Assembly: GCA_964555545.1 (NCBI GenBank)
Contig: CAZKSS010000001.1
Coordinates: 14,058 to 55,083, forward strand
Length of the DNA: 41,026 nucleotides
From: an uncultured Planctomycetales bacterium
GTDB lineage: Bacteria; Omnitrophota; Gorgyraeia; Gygaellales; Profunditerraquicolaceae
Direction: 5' to 3'
The position numbers and the translations under genes are program-made. This document shows, one piece after another, positions 16,816-26,439 of this stretch. Below the pieces are notes generated by a model, which was not told where the DNA came from, searched no databases, and worked only from the letters and a program-made list of their open reading frames with translations. Every line of letters begins with the position of its first letter. Positions within the stretch are counted from its first letter, which is position 1.

Positions 16816-17847
16816 CTACAAGATTTCGACTGATTTTTTGCCTCTCACTACTTCGCCGATAACCCAGGATTTAAGTTTGGACTTGGCTAATTTTGCGATA
16901 ATACTTTTTGCGGCGCTGGGCTCAACTATCAAAACCATACCGATGCCCATATTAAAGGTATGATACATTTCTCTATCGTCAATATTGCCTTTGTTCTGAA
17001 TGAGGCGGAAAATCTTGGGCACTGGCCAGGAACCTTTATAGATGCGCACCTTGACATTCTCAGGTAGGATACGCGCGATTTTATCGTAGAAAGCGCCGCC
17101 GGTGATATGAGAAATGCCGTGGATTGTCGTTGGTCGTTGCCTGCCTGCCGGCGAGGCAGGGTCGTTGGTCGTTGGTAATAAAGATAAAACCGGTTTGACG
17201 TAAATCCGTGTGGGCTTCAGCAATTCATCGCTCATCCGCTTTAATTCTTTCTGCGAGAAAACTTTTCTCACCAGAGCAAAGCCATTGGAATGTAGGCCGT
17301 TTGACTCCAGGCCAATTAGCGTGTCACCAACGGCGATTTTCGCACCGTCAATAATATTCCTGCGTTCCACCGCACCCACGCAAAAACCCGCCAGGTCATA
17401 TTCGCCATTTTTATACATCCCCGGCATCTGGGCGGTTTCTCCGCCGATTAAGGAACAGCCGGCCTCAATACAACCTGCGTTTATTCCTTTGACGATATCT
17501 AACAAGGTATCCTCGCTGAGTTTGGCGTAGGCAATATAATCCAGGAAGAATAAAGGCCTGGCACCGCTACACAAAATATCATTTACGTTCATGGCCACGG
17601 CATCAATGCCTACTCTATCGTGCTTTTGCGCTAAGGCGGCTATTTTTAATTTTGTGCCTACGCCGTCGGCAGAAGAGACCAAGACCGGGTCTTGAAATTT
17701 GTTCTGGAATCGGAAAAATGCGCCGAAGCCGCCGATATCTTTGAGAACTTCGGGAGAAAAAGATTTCCTGAGTAGTGTTTTTATCTTGGCCTTGAAGGCA
17801 CTTGCACTTTTAATATCCACTCCTGACTTTTTATAAGTTAATCTCAC
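16816..17847 (-). CDS. purM: Phosphoribosylformylglycinamidine cyclo-ligase (AIR synthetase)
   Basis: 343-aa ORF with PurM blocks (GGFGA, DGVGTK, HITGGAF). Carries a ~48-nt repeat/hairpin segment inside the reading frame. Confidence 0.95.
   Translation of the reverse strand: MRLTYKKSGVDIKSASAFKAKIKTLLRKSFSPEVLKDIGGFGAFFRFQNKFQDPVLVSSADGVGTKLKIAALAQKHDRVGIDAVAMNVNDILCSGARPLFFLDYIAYAKLSEDTLLDIVKGINAGCIEAGCSLIGGETAQMPGMYKNGEYDLAGFCVGAVERRNIIDGAKIAVGDTLIGLESNGLHSNGFALVRKVFSQKELKRMSDELLKPTRIYVKPVLSLLPTTNDPASPAGRQRPTTIHGISHITGGAFYDKIARILPENVKVRIYKGSWPVPKIFRLIQNKGNIDDREMYHTFNMGIGMVLIVEPSAAKSIIAKLAKSKLKSWVIGEVVRGKKSVEIL
17126..17174. repeat. Composite element within the purM reading frame: 2 heptamers, a 21-nt hairpin, then 2 heptamers
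   Basis: Reads GTCGTTG GTCGTTG, then CCTGCC-TGCCGGCGA-GGCAGG, then GTCGTTG GTCGTTG. It encodes PTTNDPASPAGRQRPTT just upstream of the conserved HITGG block. Confidence 0.85.
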
Positions 17848-19293
17848 CTAAATCGCTCCCTGTCCGCAACAATGCTCTTCCAGCGAAAATTTGCCCTGCT
17901 TCTTCTCCGGTTTCAAGGGGTAGCGACCAGTCCAGCAGGCAGTGCAATAATTGCTCTCGTGCTGCCCCAGGCATCCGAGCATCCCTTCCAGGCCTAAATA
18001 ACCGAGGCTATCCACATCCAGGAACTTTCTGATTTTATCTAAAGATGCGTATTTATTGGCGATTAATTCCCAGGCCCGATGAAAATCTATGCCGTAGAAA
18101 CAGGGAAAACGATGCGGCGGGCAGGAAATCCTTAAATGCACTTCCTTAACCCCGGCTCTCCTTAAATTGCGCACGCGGATTTTTGAAGTGGTGCCTCTTA
18201 CGATGGAGTCATCGACGATAACGATGCGTTTTCCTTTCAGAACATCGTGCAGCAAATTAAATTTTACCCTCACCCCCAGATCCCGCGCATCCTGCGCCGG
18301 CTGAATAAAGGTGCGGCCGACATAGTGGTTGCGGATAATGCCCATTTCTAAAGGTATGCCTGATTCTCGGGAATATCCTAAAGCCGCGGAAAATCCCGAA
18401 TCCGGCACCGGCACCACAAAATCCGCCTCTACCGGATGCTCTCTGGCTAACTGCTCCCCTAATTTAGAGCGCACCGTATGCACAGTCTCTCCAAAAACAA
18501 CAGAATCCGGACGGGAAAAATATACGTGCTCAAAGATACAAAATGCACGCCTGTGGTTGGCCTTCAGGCCCTGGGGACTAATGGACCTGACCGCACCGCT
18601 CCTCTTGATAAAAATAATTTCTCCCGGAGCAATCTCGCGGATGTATTTGGCTCCGATTAAATCAAAGGCACAGGTTTCGGAGGCCAGGCACCAGGTATTA
18701 GCGATTTTTCCCAGGACCAGCGGCCGAAAGCCCAGGGGGTCTCTGATGCCAATGAGGGTATCGTTATCCATCATCACTAAAGAATACGCGCCCTTGATTC
18801 TTTTTAAGGCATAGATGAGGCTATCTTCTAAATTCCTGGTCCTGCTCCTGGCCATGAGATGAATGATAATTTCGGAATCAGTGGTGGTCTGAAATATCGA
18901 GCCGGTCTTTTCCAGGTATTGGCGTAGTTCTAACGAATTGACTAAATTTCCGTTATGGGCAATACAGATTGTGCCTTTGGCAAAATCTATTAATAAGGGC
19001 TGGGCATTCTTTAAGACGCTGGAGCCGGTAGTGGAATAACGCACATGTCCGACGGCAATATCCCCTTTTAATTTATGGATAATCTCAGCGTTAAACACAT
19101 CATTCACTAGGCCGGTGTCTTTGTGTAGCGTCAAGATGCCTTTGTGATTAGCGACGATCCCGCAGGCCTCCTGGCCCCGGTGCTGCTGGGCATAAAGCCC
19201 CAGATACGTCAGCCAACTGGCGTGCCGGTTATTTATGATACCGAACAGACCGCAGTATTCTTTCGGCTCTTCGCTGAAATTTTTCTTTTGCAT
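17848..19293 (-). CDS. purF: Amidophosphoribosyltransferase
   Basis: Ntn nucleophile motif ..EYCGLFGI after a short propeptide, PRTase loop VDDSIVRGTT and C-terminal Fe-S cysteines (CTACWTG). The likely start is MQKK at 19293; the ORF track extends to 19338. Confidence 0.93.
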   Translation of the reverse strand: MQKKNFSEEPKEYCGLFGIINNRHASWLTYLGLYAQQHRGQEACGIVANHKGILTLHKDTGLVNDVFNAEIIHKLKGDIAVGHVRYSTTGSSVLKNAQPLLIDFAKGTICIAHNGNLVNSLELRQYLEKTGSIFQTTTDSEIIIHLMARSRTRNLEDSLIYALKRIKGAYSLVMMDNDTLIGIRDPLGFRPLVLGKIANTWCLASETCAFDLIGAKYIREIAPGEIIFIKRSGAVRSISPQGLKANHRRAFCIFEHVYFSRPDSVVFGETVHTVRSKLGEQLAREHPVEADFVVPVPDSGFSAALGYSRESGIPLEMGIIRNHYVGRTFIQPAQDARDLGVRVKFNLLHDVLKGKRIVIVDDSIVRGTTSKIRVRNLRRAGVKEVHLRISCPPHRFPCFYGIDFHRAWELIANKYASLDKIRKFLDVDSLGYLGLEGMLGCLGQHESNYCTACWTGRYPLKPEKKQGKFSLEEHCCGQGAI

Positions 19294-20702
19294 GGGCGCT
19301 CCTCTTGCGGTTCTCTCCCCTGCCAACAGTAGAGACAAAGACTTTCTCTGGGCAGGCCGATGGCTTCAACCATATCGTTTGATTTCTGATATTTTAAGGT
19401 GGTGACCCCCAAGTCTTTACGGATCCATTCTACCATCTTTTTATATTTTGGGGAATTTTCATCTAGGTATGCACTTACATCTTCTAAGTCTTCACCTTCC
19501 AGCGCCCGGATCGCCCTGCGCGCAGCCAACTCGTGGATACTCCTCGTGGAATAGTTAAACTTACAGGGAAACATCAAAGGCGGGCAAGCAATTCTTAAGT
19601 GGATTTCTTTTGCGCCGTTTTCCAGAAGTTTCTGGATAGTGTAATTTTTCAATTGCGTTCCCCGGACAATAGAATCATCGCAGAACACCATGCTTTTATT
19701 TTTAATTATCTCTGGTATGGGAATTAATTTCATCTTCGCAATCAAATCCCTCTCTTCCTGTGAAGGCGGCGTATAACTGCGGTCAAAGCCCGGAGTATAT
19801 TTGACTAGCGGCCTACGCAACGGTATCCCTGAACCCATGGCATAACCAATCGCATGCGCAGTACCCGAATCCGGAATCCCTGAAACCATATCTGCTTCTA
19901 TATTGTCTGCCTTGGCTAAAAAATTTCCGCTCTTTTCCCTGGCTATCTCTACATTTAATCCTTCATAACTGGAGGCGGGGAATCCCGTATAGATCCACAA
20001 AAACGCACAGATCTGGTTGCATCCCCCTCCTTTTATCTTAGACTGCAGGCCGACCTCGCTTAAAAGGATAATCTCGCCGGGCTGAATTTCTTTCCGGATC
20101 TTAAATCCTAAGTTATGAAAGGCTGAGGTTTCAGTGGTTACTGCCCAGTCTTTGTCCCTCTCCCCTATAATCAACGGCGAATAACCGTATCTATCCCGGG
20201 CGGCATAAAGGCCTTCTTTGGCCAAGAGAAGCAAAGAACAGGAGCCTTTAATCTGGGAAAACAGGTATTCAATCCCATTGACAATCGTGTCGCCGTCTAA
20301 TATAAGTTTTCCTACCAGTTCAGTCTGATTGACTTTTCCATCGGTCACCTCGCTGAAAGACCGGCCCTCTTTATACATTTGAGCGGCTAACTCCTCGGCA
20401 TTATCAATAAAACCGTTGGTGACGATAGCAAAAGGTCCAAACTTGGAATGAATGTATATCGGCTGCTCGTCAATTGCGCTGATTACACCTATCCCTTTAG
20501 ATGCGCCTTCCATCTTTTTATAATCTTCATAAAACTTTGCCTTGAACTGGCTGCCTCTAATATCGTGGATCCGGCGTATTATTTCGCCTTTCCAAACTGC
20601 TAGGCCGGCGAATCGTGTGCCCAGATGCGAATGATAATCTGTGCCGTAGAATAAATCCTCGTGGCAATTCTCTTTAGACACAATCCCGAAAATTCCGCTC
20701 AT
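19233..20702 (-). CDS. PurF-like amidophosphoribosyltransferase paralog with Ser replacing the nucleophile Cys
   Basis: 489-aa ORF preceded by GAGGAG-N6-ATG. The N-terminus is MSGIFGIV (AGC Ser where PurF has Cys). It retains the PRTase loop CDDSIVRGTQ and Fe-S-type cysteines (CPPLMFPC, CLYCWQG). Confidence 0.8.
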   Translation of the reverse strand: MSGIFGIVSKENCHEDLFYGTDYHSHLGTRFAGLAVWKGEIIRRIHDIRGSQFKAKFYEDYKKMEGASKGIGVISAIDEQPIYIHSKFGPFAIVTNGFIDNAEELAAQMYKEGRSFSEVTDGKVNQTELVGKLILDGDTIVNGIEYLFSQIKGSCSLLLLAKEGLYAARDRYGYSPLIIGERDKDWAVTTETSAFHNLGFKIRKEIQPGEIILLSEVGLQSKIKGGGCNQICAFLWIYTGFPASSYEGLNVEIAREKSGNFLAKADNIEADMVSGIPDSGTAHAIGYAMGSGIPLRRPLVKYTPGFDRSYTPPSQEERDLIAKMKLIPIPEIIKNKSMVFCDDSIVRGTQLKNYTIQKLLENGAKEIHLRIACPPLMFPCKFNYSTRSIHELAARRAIRALEGEDLEDVSAYLDENSPKYKKMVEWIRKDLGVTTLKYQKSNDMVEAIGLPRESLCLYCWQGREPQEERPCKRKISAKSRKNTAVCSVS

Positions 20703-20714
20703 TTTTAGCTCCTC

Positions 20715-21503
20715 TTAAAAACGTTTTCTAATATATTCGATGCCGTTTTGAAAAATTGCTAGACCGTCACCCTCTTTTTTCTTCAACCAACGCGGATGCT
20801 GTTCGGCAAAAATATGTCTTTCTGGATGCGGCATTAGTCCCAAAATCCTGCCGCTATCATCGCAGATTCCGGCGATATTATCCAGAGAGCCGTTAGGGTT
20901 ATGTGGATAGCCAGCAAGGCGGCCTTTTCTATCGCAATATTGAAAAACGATCTGGCCGTTTCTTCTCAATCTCTGCAAAATCTTCTTATCTCTAGTAACA
21001 AACTTGCCTTCTCCATGCGCCACGGGCAGATAGATAACTTCAGGCAAATGCCTAGCCCATATACATTTGGTCGTTGGTCGTTGGTCGTTGGTCGTTAGTA
21101 AATAAGTCCATCTGTCTTCAAACTTTGCCGAATCATTAAGCATCAGGCTGGCCTCCTGGCGCAAATCCCTATTACCCGGCAGGAGCCCGGCCTTGACCAA
21201 AACCTGAAAGCCGTTACAGATACCGATAATCAGTTTTCCTTTCCGGATGAACTGACGCAGGTCATCAATAAGTTTATACCTTAATTCATTGGCCAAGATT
21301 TTTCCCGCGCCCAGGTCATCTCCGTAAGTAAACCCCCCCGGGATAGCCAAGATCTGGTAATCCGCAAGGGCCTTGCGCTTAGTGACTAAACTATTTATAT
21401 GTACTAATTCGCTGAGCGCTCCTACTTTGTTAAAGGCAAAAGCAGTCTCTTGGTCGCAGTTGGTACCTGCGGTTCTTAAAACGCAGACTCTAGGTCTTAA
21501 CAT
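20715..21503 (-). CDS. purQ: FGAM synthase glutaminase subunit
   Basis: 262-aa ORF of a class I amidotransferase, with the nucleophile elbow GICNGFQ and the HGEG / MPHPER blocks. Contains (GGTCGTT)x4. Confidence 0.93.
   Translation of the reverse strand: MLRPRVCVLRTAGTNCDQETAFAFNKVGALSELVHINSLVTKRKALADYQILAIPGGFTYGDDLGAGKILANELRYKLIDDLRQFIRKGKLIIGICNGFQVLVKAGLLPGNRDLRQEASLMLNDSAKFEDRWTYLLTTNDQRPTTKCIWARHLPEVIYLPVAHGEGKFVTRDKKILQRLRRNGQIVFQYCDRKGRLAGYPHNPNGSLDNIAGICDDSGRILGLMPHPERHIFAEQHPRWLKKKEGDGLAIFQNGIEYIRKRF
21069..21096. repeat. Perfect heptanucleotide tandem repeat (GGTCGTT)x4 inside purQ
   Basis: Four exact units are read directly. On the coding strand (AACGACC)n is translated as TTNDQRPTT. 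Confidence 0.95.
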
Positions 21504-22158
21504 AAAATTTCTTAATTACACTGACTACCTCTTTGGGGCTATCTACTACCGTAAAAATATCCAGATCTTTCTTACTGATGCTACCGTGTCTTAAAAGGGT
21601 ATCATGGAACCAATCCAACATTCCCTTCCAGTATTCCTTTCCCAGAAGCACTACCGGGAATTTAAGAATCCTCTCGGTTTGAATGAGGTTGATGGCCTCG
21701 GTAAATTCATCTAAAGTGCCGTATCCGCCGGGCATAATCACAAAGGCCTTGGCGTATTTGACAAACATCACCTTACGCACAAAAAAGTAACGGAAATCCA
21801 AAAGCGTTTCTACGTATTTATTGGGTCGCTGTTCGTGCGGAATCTGGATATTTAGGCCGATAGAGTGGCCGCCAGCGCGGGCAGCACCTTTATTGGCCGC
21901 CTCCATAATTCCCGGTCCACTGCCGGTAATGATGGCGAATCCCTCTTTTGCCAAAAGATAAGCGGTGTTCTCTGCGAGTTTATAATACTTGCTTGTGGGT
22001 TTAAGGCGACTAGAGCCGAATATAGAAACTGCGTTACCCACTTCAGATAAGACTTCAAACCCGTCTACAAACTCCGACATAATCCGGAATATCCGCCAGG
22101 TGTCTTCCCTGGTGAAGTCATCTCTCACAATGACGTTGCCTCTTTTTACCCTTACCAT
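21490..22158 (-). CDS. LOG-family / TIGR00730 Rossmann protein (nucleotide 5'-monophosphate nucleosidase type)
   Basis: PGGYGTLDEF motif and GSGPGIMEAANKGA. The likely start is the ATG at 22158, which overlaps the purL stop (AGATGGTAA); the ORF track extends to 22263. Confidence 0.85.
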   Translation of the reverse strand: MVRVKRGNVIVRDDFTREDTWRIFRIMSEFVDGFEVLSEVGNAVSIFGSSRLKPTSKYYKLAENTAYLLAKEGFAIITGSGPGIMEAANKGAARAGGHSIGLNIQIPHEQRPNKYVETLLDFRYFFVRKVMFVKYAKAFVIMPGGYGTLDEFTEAINLIQTERILKFPVVLLGKEYWKGMLDWFHDTLLRHGSISKKDLDIFTVVDSPKEVVSVIKKFYVKT

Positions 22159-25109
22159 CTTAACGGCTCCTTCCATGTTTCTTTCATCTCTTGAATATCC
22201 GCTTTGATACAAATTTTCCCGTCTAAGCCATGAACCTGAAATTCTTTTTTTGCGCTGGTGCAACCGATTAAGCCAAAGGGAAGGCCCGCAAGTATTCTTT
22301 CAAACTTTTTCTGATTCTTTTTGGAGACTTCTACAATAAAACGGGAGTTAGATTCCGAAAATAAAATAAAGTCATTCCTTAAATTTTCTATTTTTGGTTT
22401 TTGATTTGTATTTTTGATTTTATATGGCACTTCTGACAAAAATAAATCCATGCCCCACCCGCCGGAAAAAACCATCTCTGCTGCGGCCACGCCGATGCCG
22501 CCGTCGGAACAGTCGTGCATGGCTTGCACCAGACCCGCGGAAGAAGCCCGGCTTAAGGCAGCAAAAATTTTTTTGGCTTGAGCAGGATAAACCCTGGGCA
22601 CATTATTACCGATAGCGCCGGACAAATCATAATAATGCGAGCCGCCTAATTCAGGATAAGTTTCCCCGACTACGTAAACCAAATCCCCCGGCTCTTTGGC
22701 AGACAGAGAAACTGCTTTACTGACCTCGTCCATCACGGCCAGGGCAGAAATCAGAAGCGTCCCAGGGATGCTTAAGGATTTTCCCTTAACCGTGTATTCG
22801 TTATTCAGACTGTCTTTACCGGAGATAAAGGGAATTCCAAAACCCTTGGCAATAGCATAACAACCCCGGGCCGCCCTGACTAAACTCCCCAACCTGTCAG
22901 GCTTATCCGGATTGCCCCAGCAGAAATTATCCAGAATCGCCACTTCTTTTAAAGAGCCACCCACGGCAATAATCTGGCGCAAGGCCTCGTCAATACAGGA
23001 GGCAGCCATCCAATAAGGGTCAATAAAACCGAACCTGAAATTAATCCCGTTGGCGACAACAATTCCTTTTTTTGAATTTAAAAGCGGCCTCACAATGCTG
23101 GCGTCGGACGGGCCGTCGTTAAGTAACCCCACCAAGGGTTTTAAAACCGAGCCTCCCTGCACCTCGTGGTCGTATTGGCGGATGACCCACTCTTTGGAAC
23201 AGGTATCATAATGCGCCAGCAATTTTAGTAAATATTTGGTCAGGTCCCTGGGGCATTTGAATTCCGGCTCTCTGTGTCTGGGTTGCATAAATACCGCTTT
23301 CTTCTCTATCTCCGGAATCCCCTCGTGCAGAAAGCGCATTGCCAGGTCGCAGACGAGATTATCCTGATAATAAAGCTGCAGCCTTTTCGTAGCGGTAAAT
23401 TCGCCGATTACGGTTGCCTCCACGTCCTCCTGATGAAAAACTTCTAATAAGGCATCTAAGTTTTCAGGCGCTACCGCAAGCACCATCCGCTCCTGCGACT
23501 CAGAAATCCAGATCTCGGTGTAAGACAGGCCTGCATATTTTAAAGGGACTTTCTCTAAATAAACCTTCGCCCCTAATTCCGCGGCCATTTCTCCTACTGC
23601 ACTGGATAACCCGCCGGCGCCGCAGTCAGTAATGGCATTATAGAGATTTTTATCGCGCGCCATAATAATCGCATCCAGCATCTTTTTTTCCTGAATAGGA
23701 TTGCCAACTTGCACTGCGCCGCTGGAGAGCGTCTCTGATTCGTGGGTCAATTCGCCCGAAGAAAATGTCGCGCCGTGAATTCCGTCCCTGCCGGTCCTGC
23801 CGCCGACCAGCACTATCAGATCGCCTGTCTTTGCCTGCTTAAAAGATTTTTCTTTAGGCATAATCCCGACTGTGCCGCAATAGACCAGCGGATTTCCTAC
23901 AAAGCCGTCGTGAAAAAGTATGGCTCCGTTTACGGTCGGAATACCCATTTTGTTACCATAGTCGCGCACGCCGGAGACCACGCCTTTCATAATCCGCTTG
24001 GGATGCAACGTCCCTGCCGGCAAGCGGCCAAAAGGATAATCCGGTGGCCCGAAACAAAAAACATCAGTATTCAGTATTGGTTTTGCGCCCAGGCCTGTTC
24101 CCAGGGGGTCACGGATTACTCCGCCCACGCCGGTATTCGCCCCGCCAAAAGGCTCTAAGGCCGAAGGATGATTATGGGTCTCCACCTTAAAACAAATATT
24201 GTATTTATCGTCAAAGCGGATTACCCCGGAATTATCCTTGAACACCGAAACACACCAGGGCTTATTTAACTCTTTGGTCACCTTCATAATGGTAGATTTA
24301 AGTAAATTATCAATCCTTCTTTTCTGTACCCTGTACCCTCTATCCTCTACCCTGACCTTCTCGCGATATTTTATCTTTCCTCTGAATGTCTTATGCCAGC
24401 AATGTTCTGACCAGGTCTGGGCAATGGTCTCTAATTCGCAGTCACTAGGATTGCGTTTTATTTTTTTAAAATAATCCTTGATCCGGCGCATCTCCGCCAA
24501 ATTCAGGAATAACTGGCCTTGTTTACTGATATCCAATAATTTTCTATCCGAAGCATTTGATAAATCAACGGTAATGAGTCCGAAAACTAAAGATCCGCCC
24601 GCTATTAAAGACCCGGTCTTACAGGTCACTTTATCTTCTTGCAAGACCGGGTCTTTAATAATATGCTGGATTAATTTATTATAAAGCAATTTCTCGGAGA
24701 TGGTCTTTAACTGCCGAGGGGAAAGTCTGCCTTGGATAATATATTTCTTTGCGGTCTTAAAGGAAGTAACGCTATCTATGCCTAAGTCTTTTATGCCTTT
24801 TAAGGCCGATTCTTCCACCGGATCCATTACGCCCGGGTTGTAGGCGGCTTCAACTATAAATTCGTCCCTCGTCCCTCGTCCCTCGTCCTTCGTATTAATA
24901 GCGTAATTCTGGGAAATCTTATCGGTAAGTAATTCCTGGCAAATCCTCTCAATCTCACTTTCAGAAACCTCGCCTTCAATGGTATAGACCTGTGCGTACT
25001 CAACTCGGCGGACAGAATTCACCCCTAAGTCCAGGATATCTTTCTTGATGCCCGCGCCCACCGCATCAAAAACTCCGGGCCTGTCTTTTACCTCAATCCG
25101 ATAAAACAT
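22152..25109 (-). CDS. purL: FGAM synthase II with two N-terminal PurS-like modules (PurS-PurS-PurL fusion)
   Basis: 985-aa ORF. Residues ~1-75 and ~85-150 each resemble PurS (V.DPxG-like, LG..V, LL...I..Y). The PurL core begins near WSEHCWHKTF. Three heptamer-repeat segments lie inside. Confidence 0.93.
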   Translation of the reverse strand: MFYRIEVKDRPGVFDAVGAGIKKDILDLGVNSVRRVEYAQVYTIEGEVSESEIERICQELLTDKISQNYAINTKDEGRGTRDEFIVEAAYNPGVMDPVEESALKGIKDLGIDSVTSFKTAKKYIIQGRLSPRQLKTISEKLLYNKLIQHIIKDPVLQEDKVTCKTGSLIAGGSLVFGLITVDLSNASDRKLLDISKQGQLFLNLAEMRRIKDYFKKIKRNPSDCELETIAQTWSEHCWHKTFRGKIKYREKVRVEDRGYRVQKRRIDNLLKSTIMKVTKELNKPWCVSVFKDNSGVIRFDDKYNICFKVETHNHPSALEPFGGANTGVGGVIRDPLGTGLGAKPILNTDVFCFGPPDYPFGRLPAGTLHPKRIMKGVVSGVRDYGNKMGIPTVNGAILFHDGFVGNPLVYCGTVGIMPKEKSFKQAKTGDLIVLVGGRTGRDGIHGATFSSGELTHESETLSSGAVQVGNPIQEKKMLDAIIMARDKNLYNAITDCGAGGLSSAVGEMAAELGAKVYLEKVPLKYAGLSYTEIWISESQERMVLAVAPENLDALLEVFHQEDVEATVIGEFTATKRLQLYYQDNLVCDLAMRFLHEGIPEIEKKAVFMQPRHREPEFKCPRDLTKYLLKLLAHYDTCSKEWVIRQYDHEVQGGSVLKPLVGLLNDGPSDASIVRPLLNSKKGIVVANGINFRFGFIDPYWMAASCIDEALRQIIAVGGSLKEVAILDNFCWGNPDKPDRLGSLVRAARGCYAIAKGFGIPFISGKDSLNNEYTVKGKSLSIPGTLLISALAVMDEVSKAVSLSAKEPGDLVYVVGETYPELGGSHYYDLSGAIGNNVPRVYPAQAKKIFAALSRASSAGLVQAMHDCSDGGIGVAAAEMVFSGGWGMDLFLSEVPYKIKNTNQKPKIENLRNDFILFSESNSRFIVEVSKKNQKKFERILAGLPFGLIGCTSAKKEFQVHGLDGKICIKADIQEMKETWKEPLRW
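22391..22424. repeat. Imperfect heptamer-like tandem repeat (TTTTTGR) inside the purL 3' region
   Basis: Reads TTTTTGG TTTTTGA TTTGTA TTTTTGA TTTTATA. It encodes KNTNQKPKIEN. Confidence 0.55.
24324..24358. repeat. Heptanucleotide tandem repeat (CTGTACC family, 5 units) inside purL
   Basis: Reads CTGTACC CTGTACC CTCTATC CTCTACC CTGACCT. It encodes VRVEDRGYRVQ. Confidence 0.85.
24863..24893. repeat. Heptanucleotide tandem repeat (CGTCCCT)x3 plus a degenerate unit inside purL
   Basis: Reads CGTCCCT CGTCCCT CGTCCCT CGTCCTT CGT. It encodes KDEGRGTRDE, located between the two PurS-like modules. Confidence 0.92.
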
Positions 25110-25146: not shown

Positions 25147-26439
25147 TTATAAGCCGATTCTTCTAAAAATCTTATTTACGTTGCGCAGGTAATAATCTAA
25201 ATCCATCATCCTGTCTAACTCTTTGGGGGAAAGATACTTTGCGACTTGTTTATCCGCCAAAAGCGCTTCCTTGAAATCTCTACTTTGTCTCCAGGTCTGC
25301 ATGGCGCATCTCTGCACCAAGTCATAGGCCTTTGGACGGGGGAGACCCTTGGCCATTAATCCCAAGAGCACCCCCTGAGAAAAAATCAGGCCGTGCGTAC
25401 GCGCCAGATTCGCCAGCATATTATCCGGATAGACATTTAATCCAGTGATAACTTCCATAAATTTATGCAGCATATAATCCAAGAGCAGAGTGGAATCCGG
25501 CATAATTATGCGTTCCACCGACGAATGGGAGATGTCGCGCTCATGCCAAAGCGCAACGTTCTCCATTGCCGCCAGGGCATTAGCGCGCAGGATTCTGGCT
25601 AGACCACAGATGCGTTCGCAGATGACCGGATTTTTCTTGTGCGGCATGGCAGATGAGCCTTTCTGTCCTTTAGCAAAAGGCTCCTCTGCCTCCAACACCT
25701 CAGTGCGTTGCAGGTGCCTGATTTCTAAGGCAAATTTTTCTAAAGATGAACCAATTACCGCTAAAGTGGCCAGATATTGGGCATATCCATCCCGTGGTAT
25801 AACCTGGGTGGAGACCTTTGCCGGTTTAAGCCCGAGTTTTTTACAGACATAGGTCTCGACCTCAGGTCCAATATTAGCATAGGTGCCTACGGCGCCGGAA
25901 ATTTTGCCCAGGCAGACTTCTTCCTTTGCCTGCCTCAGCCGGACTAAATTGCGCTGGTTTTCCTCAAACCAAAGCGCAAGTTTCAGGCCGAAGGTCACCG
26001 GCTCAGCATGCACGCCGTGGGTGCGGCCGATACAAACCATATCCTTGTATCTTTTGGCCTTCTTGGCCAGCACTGCGGAAAGTTCATTTAAATCCTCAAG
26101 AAGAATATCCGAGGCGGCTTTTAACTGTATGCCCAGTGTCGTATCCATGATATCAGATGAGGTCAGGCCTAAATGCAGATATCGGGCATCTGACCCAATA
26201 TATTGGGCTACATTCTGCACAAAAGCCACTACATCATGTTGTGTCTGGGTTTCTATTCTCTGGATTTGGGCGATATTGAACTTGGCTTTTCTTTTGATTC
26301 TGGAAAGGGCAGCCGGCGGGACTTGTCTCTGTTTAGAGAGGGCCTCCAGGACGAGGAGCTCGACGCGCAGCATGGTCTGAAATTTAAACTCCTCCTGCCA
26401 TATTTTGGACATCTCAGGCCTGCTATAACGTTCGATCAT
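25147..26439 (-). CDS. purB: Adenylosuccinate lyase
   Basis: 430-aa ORF with the fumarate-lyase signature region (GSSAMPHKKNP) and PurB-type termini. Confidence 0.95.
   Translation of the reverse strand: MIERYSRPEMSKIWQEEFKFQTMLRVELLVLEALSKQRQVPPAALSRIKRKAKFNIAQIQRIETQTQHDVVAFVQNVAQYIGSDARYLHLGLTSSDIMDTTLGIQLKAASDILLEDLNELSAVLAKKAKRYKDMVCIGRTHGVHAEPVTFGLKLALWFEENQRNLVRLRQAKEEVCLGKISGAVGTYANIGPEVETYVCKKLGLKPAKVSTQVIPRDGYAQYLATLAVIGSSLEKFALEIRHLQRTEVLEAEEPFAKGQKGSSAMPHKKNPVICERICGLARILRANALAAMENVALWHERDISHSSVERIIMPDSTLLLDYMLHKFMEVITGLNVYPDNMLANLARTHGLIFSQGVLLGLMAKGLPRPKAYDLVQRCAMQTWRQSRDFKEALLADKQVAKYLSPKELDRMMDLDYYLRNVNKIFRRIGL

Follow-up and report, generated by a model that had tools for sequence, protein, structure and literature searches.

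A stretch of 41,026 nucleotides (hereafter the window) from contig CAZKSS010000001.1 of an uncultured Omnitrophota bacterium carries, directly upstream of a canonical purF gene, a second full-length gene of the same family in which the codon for the catalytic cysteine is replaced by a serine codon. Sequence comparisons place the product of this gene, here named PurFx, in a large and ancient branch of cysteine-less PurF-family proteins that is mislabelled in the databases. Judged by sequence, this branch has lost the working parts of the glutaminase throughout, namely its nucleophile, the Arg and Asp that bind glutamine, and the oxyanion Asn, and its transferase machinery is intact. PurFx is thus predicted to be unable to hydrolyse glutamine by the known mechanism. 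We consider it probable that the protein is an ammonia-dependent synthase of 5-phosphoribosylamine (PRA), working beside the glutamine-dependent PurF in the genome of the window. It would bind phosphoribosyl pyrophosphate (PRPP) and convert it to PRA with nitrogen from free ammonia instead of glutamine. PurFx and the PurF encoded downstream would then be co-transcribed isozymes for ammonia-replete and glutamine-replete conditions, respectively, and PurFx alone would feed PurD in sister genera that have lost purF and often purQ and carA as well. Five lines of evidence point in this direction: a dismantled glutaminase site, an invariant transferase site, genomes with PurFx as the sole PurF, the position of purFx in the purF slot of operons and its co-occurrence with PyrJ. 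Together they make ammonia use the best supported candidate among the four roles put forward when the window was read from its sequence alone.

The glutaminase and transferase sites of PurFx

The gene and its relevant features, all on the minus strand, are as follows.

19233-20702, minus strand: purFx, PurF-like paralogue of 489 aa (MSGIFGIV...); from its reading frame, profile, fold and clade, predicted to be glutaminase-dead, phosphoribosyltransferase-intact and of the [4Fe-4S] type
20709-20714, minus strand: purFx ribosome-binding site GAGGAG, read from the sequence, 6 nt before the ATG (20702-20700)
20715-20717, minus strand: TAA stop codon of purQ, in frame with the purFx ATG and 15 nt upstream of it
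20697-20699, minus strand: AGC codon of Ser2, at the position of Cys1, the N-terminal nucleophile (Ntn); Cys1 of B. subtilis PurF aligns with Ser2
20616-20639, minus strand: signature DYHSHLGT (residues 22-29), which replaces the glutamine-site motif LQHRGQE, with Leu27 in place of Arg26
19653-19682, minus strand: PRPP-binding loop CDDSIVRGTQ (residues 341-350)
19233-19293, minus strand: overlap of purFx and purF, 61 nt, in different frames

The sequence-only reading had described a full-length PurF paralogue upstream of purF with Ser at the catalytic Cys1 position, and the MSGIFGIV start, the AGC codon and the GAGGAG ribosome-binding site were all read as described. It had also raised the possibility of an upstream start adding a propeptide that ends in Cys. 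Since an in-frame TAA lies 15 nt before the ATG, no such start or propeptide exists and this candidate was ruled out. Conservation of the serine was examined as well: 117 of 120 PurFx homologues (74-83% identity) begin with Met-Ser, which eliminates a sequencing error or a single-genome variant as the origin of Ser2, and Cys is never found at this position among 102 diverse family members. The overlap with the start of purF, put earlier at about 60 nt, includes the PurF propeptide and its Cys1 codon (19252-19254). It originates from a non-conserved C-terminal tail of about 24 residues in PurFx, missing in most orthologues (464-467 aa), whose residues 472-489 are predicted to be disordered (predicted local distance difference test score, pLDDT, below 50 in the AlphaFold2 model). 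purFx and purF are also in tandem in close relatives, where the two genes lie 20 nt apart or overlap by 4 nt.

PurFx scores 203.9 bits against the PurF equivalog profile TIGR01134, below the curated cut-off of 350 bits, as compared to 508.4 bits for the neighbouring purF. Identity between PurFx and this PurF is 30% across the whole length, and residues 3-395 of PurFx match PDB entry 1ao0 at the sequence level. When 8415 relatives were collected, with one representative per 50%-identity cluster, the nearest were found to combine an M-[S/G/T/A]-G-[ILF]-F-G N-terminus with the motif FYGTDYHSHLGT where PurF has LQHRGQE. Residues were then tallied column by column, in E. coli numbering, for 102 diverse family members aligned with 18 PurFs that have the Cys. 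At the Cys1 column the family has Gly (45), Ser (44), Thr (5) or Ala (2) and no Cys. Arg26 has become Leu in 86 members and Met in 11; Arg73-Tyr74 are deleted in all 102. The Asn101 column holds Val (46), Asn (14) and other residues, Asn being present in the PurFx of the window, and Asp127 is lost, no acid aligning there in the window's protein. On the transferase side, the D, S and R of the PRPP loop and the Lys and Arg of the flexible loop are found in 102/102 members, with K301, R308, Q315, R318 and K325 conserved in PurFx. The four cysteine ligands of the [4Fe-4S] cluster (C232, C380, C456 and C459 in PurFx), from which cluster binding is predicted, occur in 99-102 of the 102. The earlier statement that the PRPP loop CDDSIVRGTQ and the Fe-S-type cysteines are kept was therefore borne out. 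In sum, PurFx lacks the Cys nucleophile, the glutamine-site residues and the profile score of PurF; it has the type I phosphoribosyltransferase domain with PRPP loop (DDS-x-x-RG-T) and flexible loop, the two-domain arrangement of Ntn and transferase folds and the four cysteines of the B. subtilis-type [4Fe-4S] subgroup, along with every motif of the DYHSHLGT clade (M-[SG]-G-x-F-G, DYHSHLGT, QFKxKF and DDSIVRGTQL).

An AlphaFold2 model of PurFx computed from the family alignment reached a pLDDT of 91.6 and a predicted template modelling (pTM) score of 0.89. Its best Foldseek match in the PDB was B. subtilis PurF (1ao0; E 6e-43, TM 0.80/0.85, 29% identity), followed by the Arabidopsis and E. coli enzymes; the Ntn domain is thus modelled with its fold preserved. 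Phylogenetic placement was checked in a maximum-likelihood tree of 55 rows. The DYHSHLGT/PurFx family forms a 26-row clade (Shimodaira-Hasegawa approximate likelihood ratio test, SH-aLRT, 99) nested in a 34-row cysteine-less superclade (SH-aLRT 99) with three subclades, of which one has mostly Ala. On this tree, position 1 underwent at least 13 changes of state, as against 3 changes between Cys and non-Cys. Given the frequency of Gly and the number of state changes, Ser is a lineage habit at a site where the residue need merely be small, Ser2 being one of several small residues tolerated there.

Other cysteine-less PurF lineages were seen outside the DYHSHLGT family. One protein (P0240) starts with MSGILGI yet keeps QHRGQE, and another clade combines a MAG[LI]xGLS start with FYQQHLGEE; P0238, P0173/P0209 and P0215/P0221/P0232/P0234/P0237/P0258 were also noted among these lineages. 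It would seem that PurF has lost its nucleophile on at least three occasions.

Genomes with PurFx as the only PurF-type enzyme

Sixteen Omnitrophota genomes from 14 genera, 89-98% complete and one of them in 8 contigs, carry PurFx and gave no second PurF transferase-domain match at E <= 1e-3, their other matches being to GlmS- or AsnB-type glutaminase domains alone. PurD is present in 15 of the 16. In the four of them that belong to the window's family and whose loci were inspected, the operon is purB-purL-LOG-(purQ)-purFx-purM-x-purD. This is the window's operon (purB-purSL-LOG-purQ-purFx-purF-purM-purD-purE, minus strand) without purF and, in three cases, without purQ and the PurS fusion as well; PurFx occupies the purF slot. 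Two others have the locus carB-pyrJ-purFx. For comparison, 16 genomes having only a canonical PurF were taken as controls. PyrJ was found in 16/16 PurFx-only genomes versus 4/16 controls, PurQ in 4/16 versus 16/16 and CarA in 8/16 versus 16/16. Genera within the window's family follow the PyrJ pattern, too. The window genome itself carries all of PurF, PurFx, PurQ, CarA and PyrJ. Its pyrJ gene is in two pieces at contig ends (contigs C99 and C14; model positions 74-331 and 1-89), in what looks like an assembly break rather than a pseudogene.

Further changes were observed around purFx in these lineages. Where sister genera lack purF, purQ is gone from both operon and genome and PurL is a plain protein of 736 aa without the PurS fusion (985 aa in the window), as at locus L089 (6214-8424) and also L090, L093 and L004, which suggests that synthesis of formylglycinamidine ribonucleotide (FGAM) is ammonia-dependent in them, too. 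In several Omnitrophota, carB, pyrJ (DUF1846) and purFx form one operon (L092 9172-15373, L094 4351-10432, L012 4456-10713), and a CarB protein without its glutaminase subunit would likewise depend on ammonia.

PurFx also seemed to be the only PurF in 8 of 20 genomes outside Omnitrophota; this was not upheld on checking. Oligosphaera ethanolica and a Bacteroidales metagenome-assembled genome (MAG) encode a long Cys-PurF of about 620 aa that falls below the TIGR01134 cut-off, one of the other genomes has a truncated PurF, one a PurF split by a stop codon, and the rest are small partial assemblies. The claim of a sole PurF is accordingly restricted to the 16 Omnitrophota genomes. The long PurF proteins (L084 1111-2970, minus strand; L085 1006-3012, plus strand) have KHECG, QHNRGQDGAG and DDSIVRGNT. 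They score merely 83-135 bits on TIGR01134, so automated calls of purF absence are unreliable in such genomes.

A pattern scan with one genome per species returned at least 600 PurFx loci. The matches listed include Omnitrophota, Planctomycetota, Thermodesulfobacteriota, Syntrophia, Elusimicrobiota, Clostridia, Bacteroidales, Verrucomicrobiota, Lentisphaerae, Gemmatimonadota, Acidobacteriota, Spirochaetes and Anaerolineae among bacteria, and Altiarchaeota, Thermoplasmatota, Methanobacteriota and Asgard archaea. Clustering the open reading frames around 80 loci across phyla revealed no universally conserved neighbourhood: pur genes accompany purFx at about 10 loci, with purF directly before or after it at about 8; carB is a neighbour at 5 loci and DUF1846 at 3, one operon reading DUF1846-purFx-carB. 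Most loci outside Omnitrophota are without pur-gene context. Where context exists, it is that of purine and pyrimidine synthesis (purM, purF, purQ, purB, carB, pyrJ). By their coordinates, purFx and purF are usually unlinked outside the window's family, which argues for an independent function of PurFx. A canonical PurF scoring above the cut-off is encoded in 217 of 251 Omnitrophota genomes and one copy of PurFx in 114, so that about 95 carry both.

The nitrogen donor and alternative roles

Several points weigh against ammonia-dependent PRA synthesis as the role of PurFx. About 80% of the PurFx-carrying Omnitrophota genomes also hold a Cys-PurF, as do all well-assembled PurFx genomes checked outside this phylum. 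The co-occurrence counts are phylogenetically non-independent and the genomes are MAGs, in which absences are probabilistic. Canonical PurF already uses ammonia in vitro, so that it is not obvious why a dedicated isozyme should be needed. Moreover, we infer the nitrogen donor solely from missing residues and from co-occurrence. Finally, the N-terminal domain is not decaying and has near-invariant motifs of its own; describing it as a dead glutaminase leaves the role of this conserved domain unexplained, and here lies the main uncertainty.

The motifs in question, DYHSHLGT, QFKxKF and GIGVISDxDxQP, are near-invariant across phyla, as would not be expected of a relic, and the surroundings of the former glutamine pocket still have His25, Gly27, Gly102 and the N of NLVN. 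DYHSHLGT and QFKxKF might thus form a new site for ammonium or for another nitrogen donor, or the protein might transfer phosphoribose onto a nucleophile other than ammonia, consistent with the lack of pur-gene context at most loci outside Omnitrophota. We regard this explanation as unlikely: such context as is available belongs to purine and pyrimidine synthesis, PurFx replaces PurF both by position and genomically in genomes that contain PurD, and no neighbourhood examined offered a candidate for an alternative substrate. A related and equally speculative proposal, to which we give little weight, sees more than a dead glutaminase in the N-terminal domain with its DYHSHLGT and QFKxKF motifs. 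This domain would be a rebuilt site at the old pocket that captures and deprotonates ammonium, or processes a donor other than glutamine, and feeds the old ammonia channel. PurFx, PyrJ, CarB without CarA and PurL without PurQ and PurS would make up a portable glutamine-sparing module of anaerobes in many bacterial and archaeal phyla, with genomes carrying the tandem pair switching between routes.

PurFx could instead be a non-catalytic partner, a pseudoenzyme that hetero-oligomerises with PurF and tunes its activity or feedback, with the PRPP/nucleotide site serving as a sensor. PurF itself is a homodimer or tetramer, and its catalytic site is also the nucleotide-inhibitor site, as in 1ao0, which contains adenosine diphosphate and guanosine monophosphate. 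Such a partnership would fit the tandem, translationally coupled arrangement of purFx and purF in the window and in close relatives, the adjoining purF (in either order) at about 8 of 80 diverse loci and the presence of a Cys-PurF in most PurFx carriers. It is difficult to reconcile with the 16 genomes that keep PurFx without any PurF partner (15 of them with PurD), or with the two genes being unlinked in the majority of Omnitrophota families and of other phyla. The strict conservation of all catalytic transferase residues and of the flexible loop is also more than a sensor needs. We therefore think a partner role decidedly unlikely. The regulatory role and the new phosphoribosyl transfer, both contemplated in the sequence-only reading, are less likely for PurFx than direct use of ammonia.

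The suggestion that Ser acts as nucleophile, once exposed by removal of Met, and that the enzyme is still glutamine-dependent fared worse. Nucleophilic Ser or Thr is possible in the Ntn hydrolase superfamily, and Ser is nearly constant in the close Omnitrophota orthologues (117/120). Across the family, however, no conserved nucleophilic N-terminal residue is found: Gly is as common as Ser, with the 13 or more state changes described above, and the glutamine-binding and oxyanion positions (Arg26, Arg73/Tyr74, Asn101, Asp127) are gone. The C1S mutant of E. coli PurF, moreover, is devoid of activity with glutamine (Mei & Zalkin 1989, as summarised in PMC3261824). A serine-dependent glutaminase is, on these grounds, very improbable. 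Least credible of all is a functionless, decaying duplicate of purF, a view that could invoke the adjoining purF and the loss of catalytic residues from one domain and is effectively refuted by the conservation data: just 30% identity to the neighbouring PurF, an ancient cross-domain clade, an intact frame, invariant motifs, orthologues numbering in the hundreds (60-83% identity), and a single copy in 114/251 Omnitrophota genomes.

The operon of the window and known systems

The source genome is an Omnitrophota MAG of 1.15 Mb in 113 contigs, 88% complete. Besides purFx, the operon comprises the following genes.

25147-26439, minus strand: purB (Lyase_1 and ADSL_C)
22152-25109, minus strand: purS-purL fusion, 985 aa (PF02700 at residues 4-72, FGAR-AT linker and AIRS/AIRS_C)
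21490-22263, minus strand: LOG/Lysine_decarbox-family gene (PF03641 and PF18306)
20715-21503, minus strand: purQ, glutaminase subunit of FGAM synthase (PF13507, 276 bits)
17848-19293, minus strand: canonical purF, 481 aa, with a 13-residue propeptide followed by CGLFGI (TIGR01134, 508 bits)
16816-17847, minus strand: purM (AIRS and AIRS_C)
14832-16124, minus strand: purD, the enzyme consuming phosphoribosylamine (GARS_N/A/C)
14354-14839, minus strand: purE (AIRC)

The N-terminus of PurF reads MQKKNFSEEPKEY ahead of CGLFGI (MQKK..EY, then CGLFGI), and the gene has a GAGGAG of its own at 19304-19299. All canonical motifs are present (QHRGQE, GHVRYST, HNGN, TTDSE and DDSIVRGTT). PurS is fused at the N-terminus of PurL in the window and PurQ is encoded by a separate gene. 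The LOG gene between purL and purQ (SLOG family, annotated as a possible lysine decarboxylase) recurs at this place in every related Omnitrophota operon seen (L004, L005, L089-L093, L099-L103). Enzymes of the LOG family cleave nucleoside 5'-monophosphates, and the presence of the gene in a pur operon may connect it with purine salvage or with regulation. Its listed TTG start would produce a 112-nt overlap with purL; the true start is probably further downstream. Between purM and purD (16125-16792, minus strand) lie a DUF5674 gene (113 aa) and a 109-aa open reading frame without a Pfam match; relatives have other inserts here (a 288-aa open reading frame in L089) or none. Past purE come Sua5-LMWPc, rpiB, glyA, a dCMP deaminase gene and nrdR. 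The first of these (13299-14357, minus strand), directly after purE, fuses a Sua5/YciO/YrdC domain to a low-molecular-weight phosphotyrosine phosphatase domain and is kept in relatives (L100, L102). An Rfam scan of the window returned two tRNAs alone, with no riboswitch ahead of the operon.

PurFx proteins carry the database label "amidophosphoribosyltransferase". Thousands of proteins so named, in many phyla, would be unable to use glutamine by the known mechanism. Should the proposed role be correct, the two PurF forms should be kept apart when the metabolism of uncultured anaerobes and gut bacteria is reconstructed, and the loss of PurF, PurQ and CarA together with the gain of PyrJ would suggest that nucleotide synthesis follows a coherent "ammonia economy". 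The tandem pair of the window would then represent matched isozymes in one organism.

With the [4Fe-4S] PurF typified by the B. subtilis enzyme (PDB 1ao0 and 1gph; TIGR01134), PurFx shares the two-domain fold, the PRPP loop, the flexible loop, the four cluster cysteines and the operon neighbourhood. It differs in having no Cys1, Arg26, Arg73/Tyr74 or Asp127 and no propeptide; Asn101 is not conserved in its family. A laboratory analogue of the state proposed for PurFx is provided by E. coli PurF with Ala or Ser substituted for Cys1, in which the activity with glutamine was abolished and ammonia-dependent PRA synthesis was kept (Mei & Zalkin 1989, in the account given in PMC3261824). Those mutants are engineered point changes in an otherwise intact glutamine site, whereas PurFx represents an evolved family with N-domain motifs of its own.

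A literature search found no characterisation of the bacterial PurFx family, the sole description being a 2011 note on PurF' of Crenarchaeota (Brown, Hoopes, White & Sarisky 2011, Biol Direct 6:63; PMC3261824). PurF' is a PurF paralogue with Ala or Val in place of the N-terminal Cys, whose gene lies close to purF and further pur genes, and its authors proposed a putative function as ammonia-dependent PRPP aminotransferase. Both PurF' and PurFx are thus Cys-less PurF homologues encoded with purine genes beside a true purF, a likeness drawn from their descriptions. PurF' was reported in archaea alone, and the link to PurF/PurQ/CarA loss and to PyrJ is not part of that work. A parallel in nucleotide synthesis is PyrJ (DUF1846), shown experimentally to be a cytidine triphosphate (CTP) synthase that uses ammonia, not glutamine (bioRxiv 10.1101/2024.09.24.614635). 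Like PurFx, it is a glutamine-independent stand-in found beside or instead of the canonical enzyme; its gene adjoins purFx in some operons and is present in 16/16 PurFx-only genomes. Unlike PurFx, PyrJ has an experimentally established function, and the two are unrelated in fold and reaction. If PurFx acts as proposed, the committed step of purine synthesis would have a second, glutamine-independent form, parallel to that which PyrJ provides for CTP.

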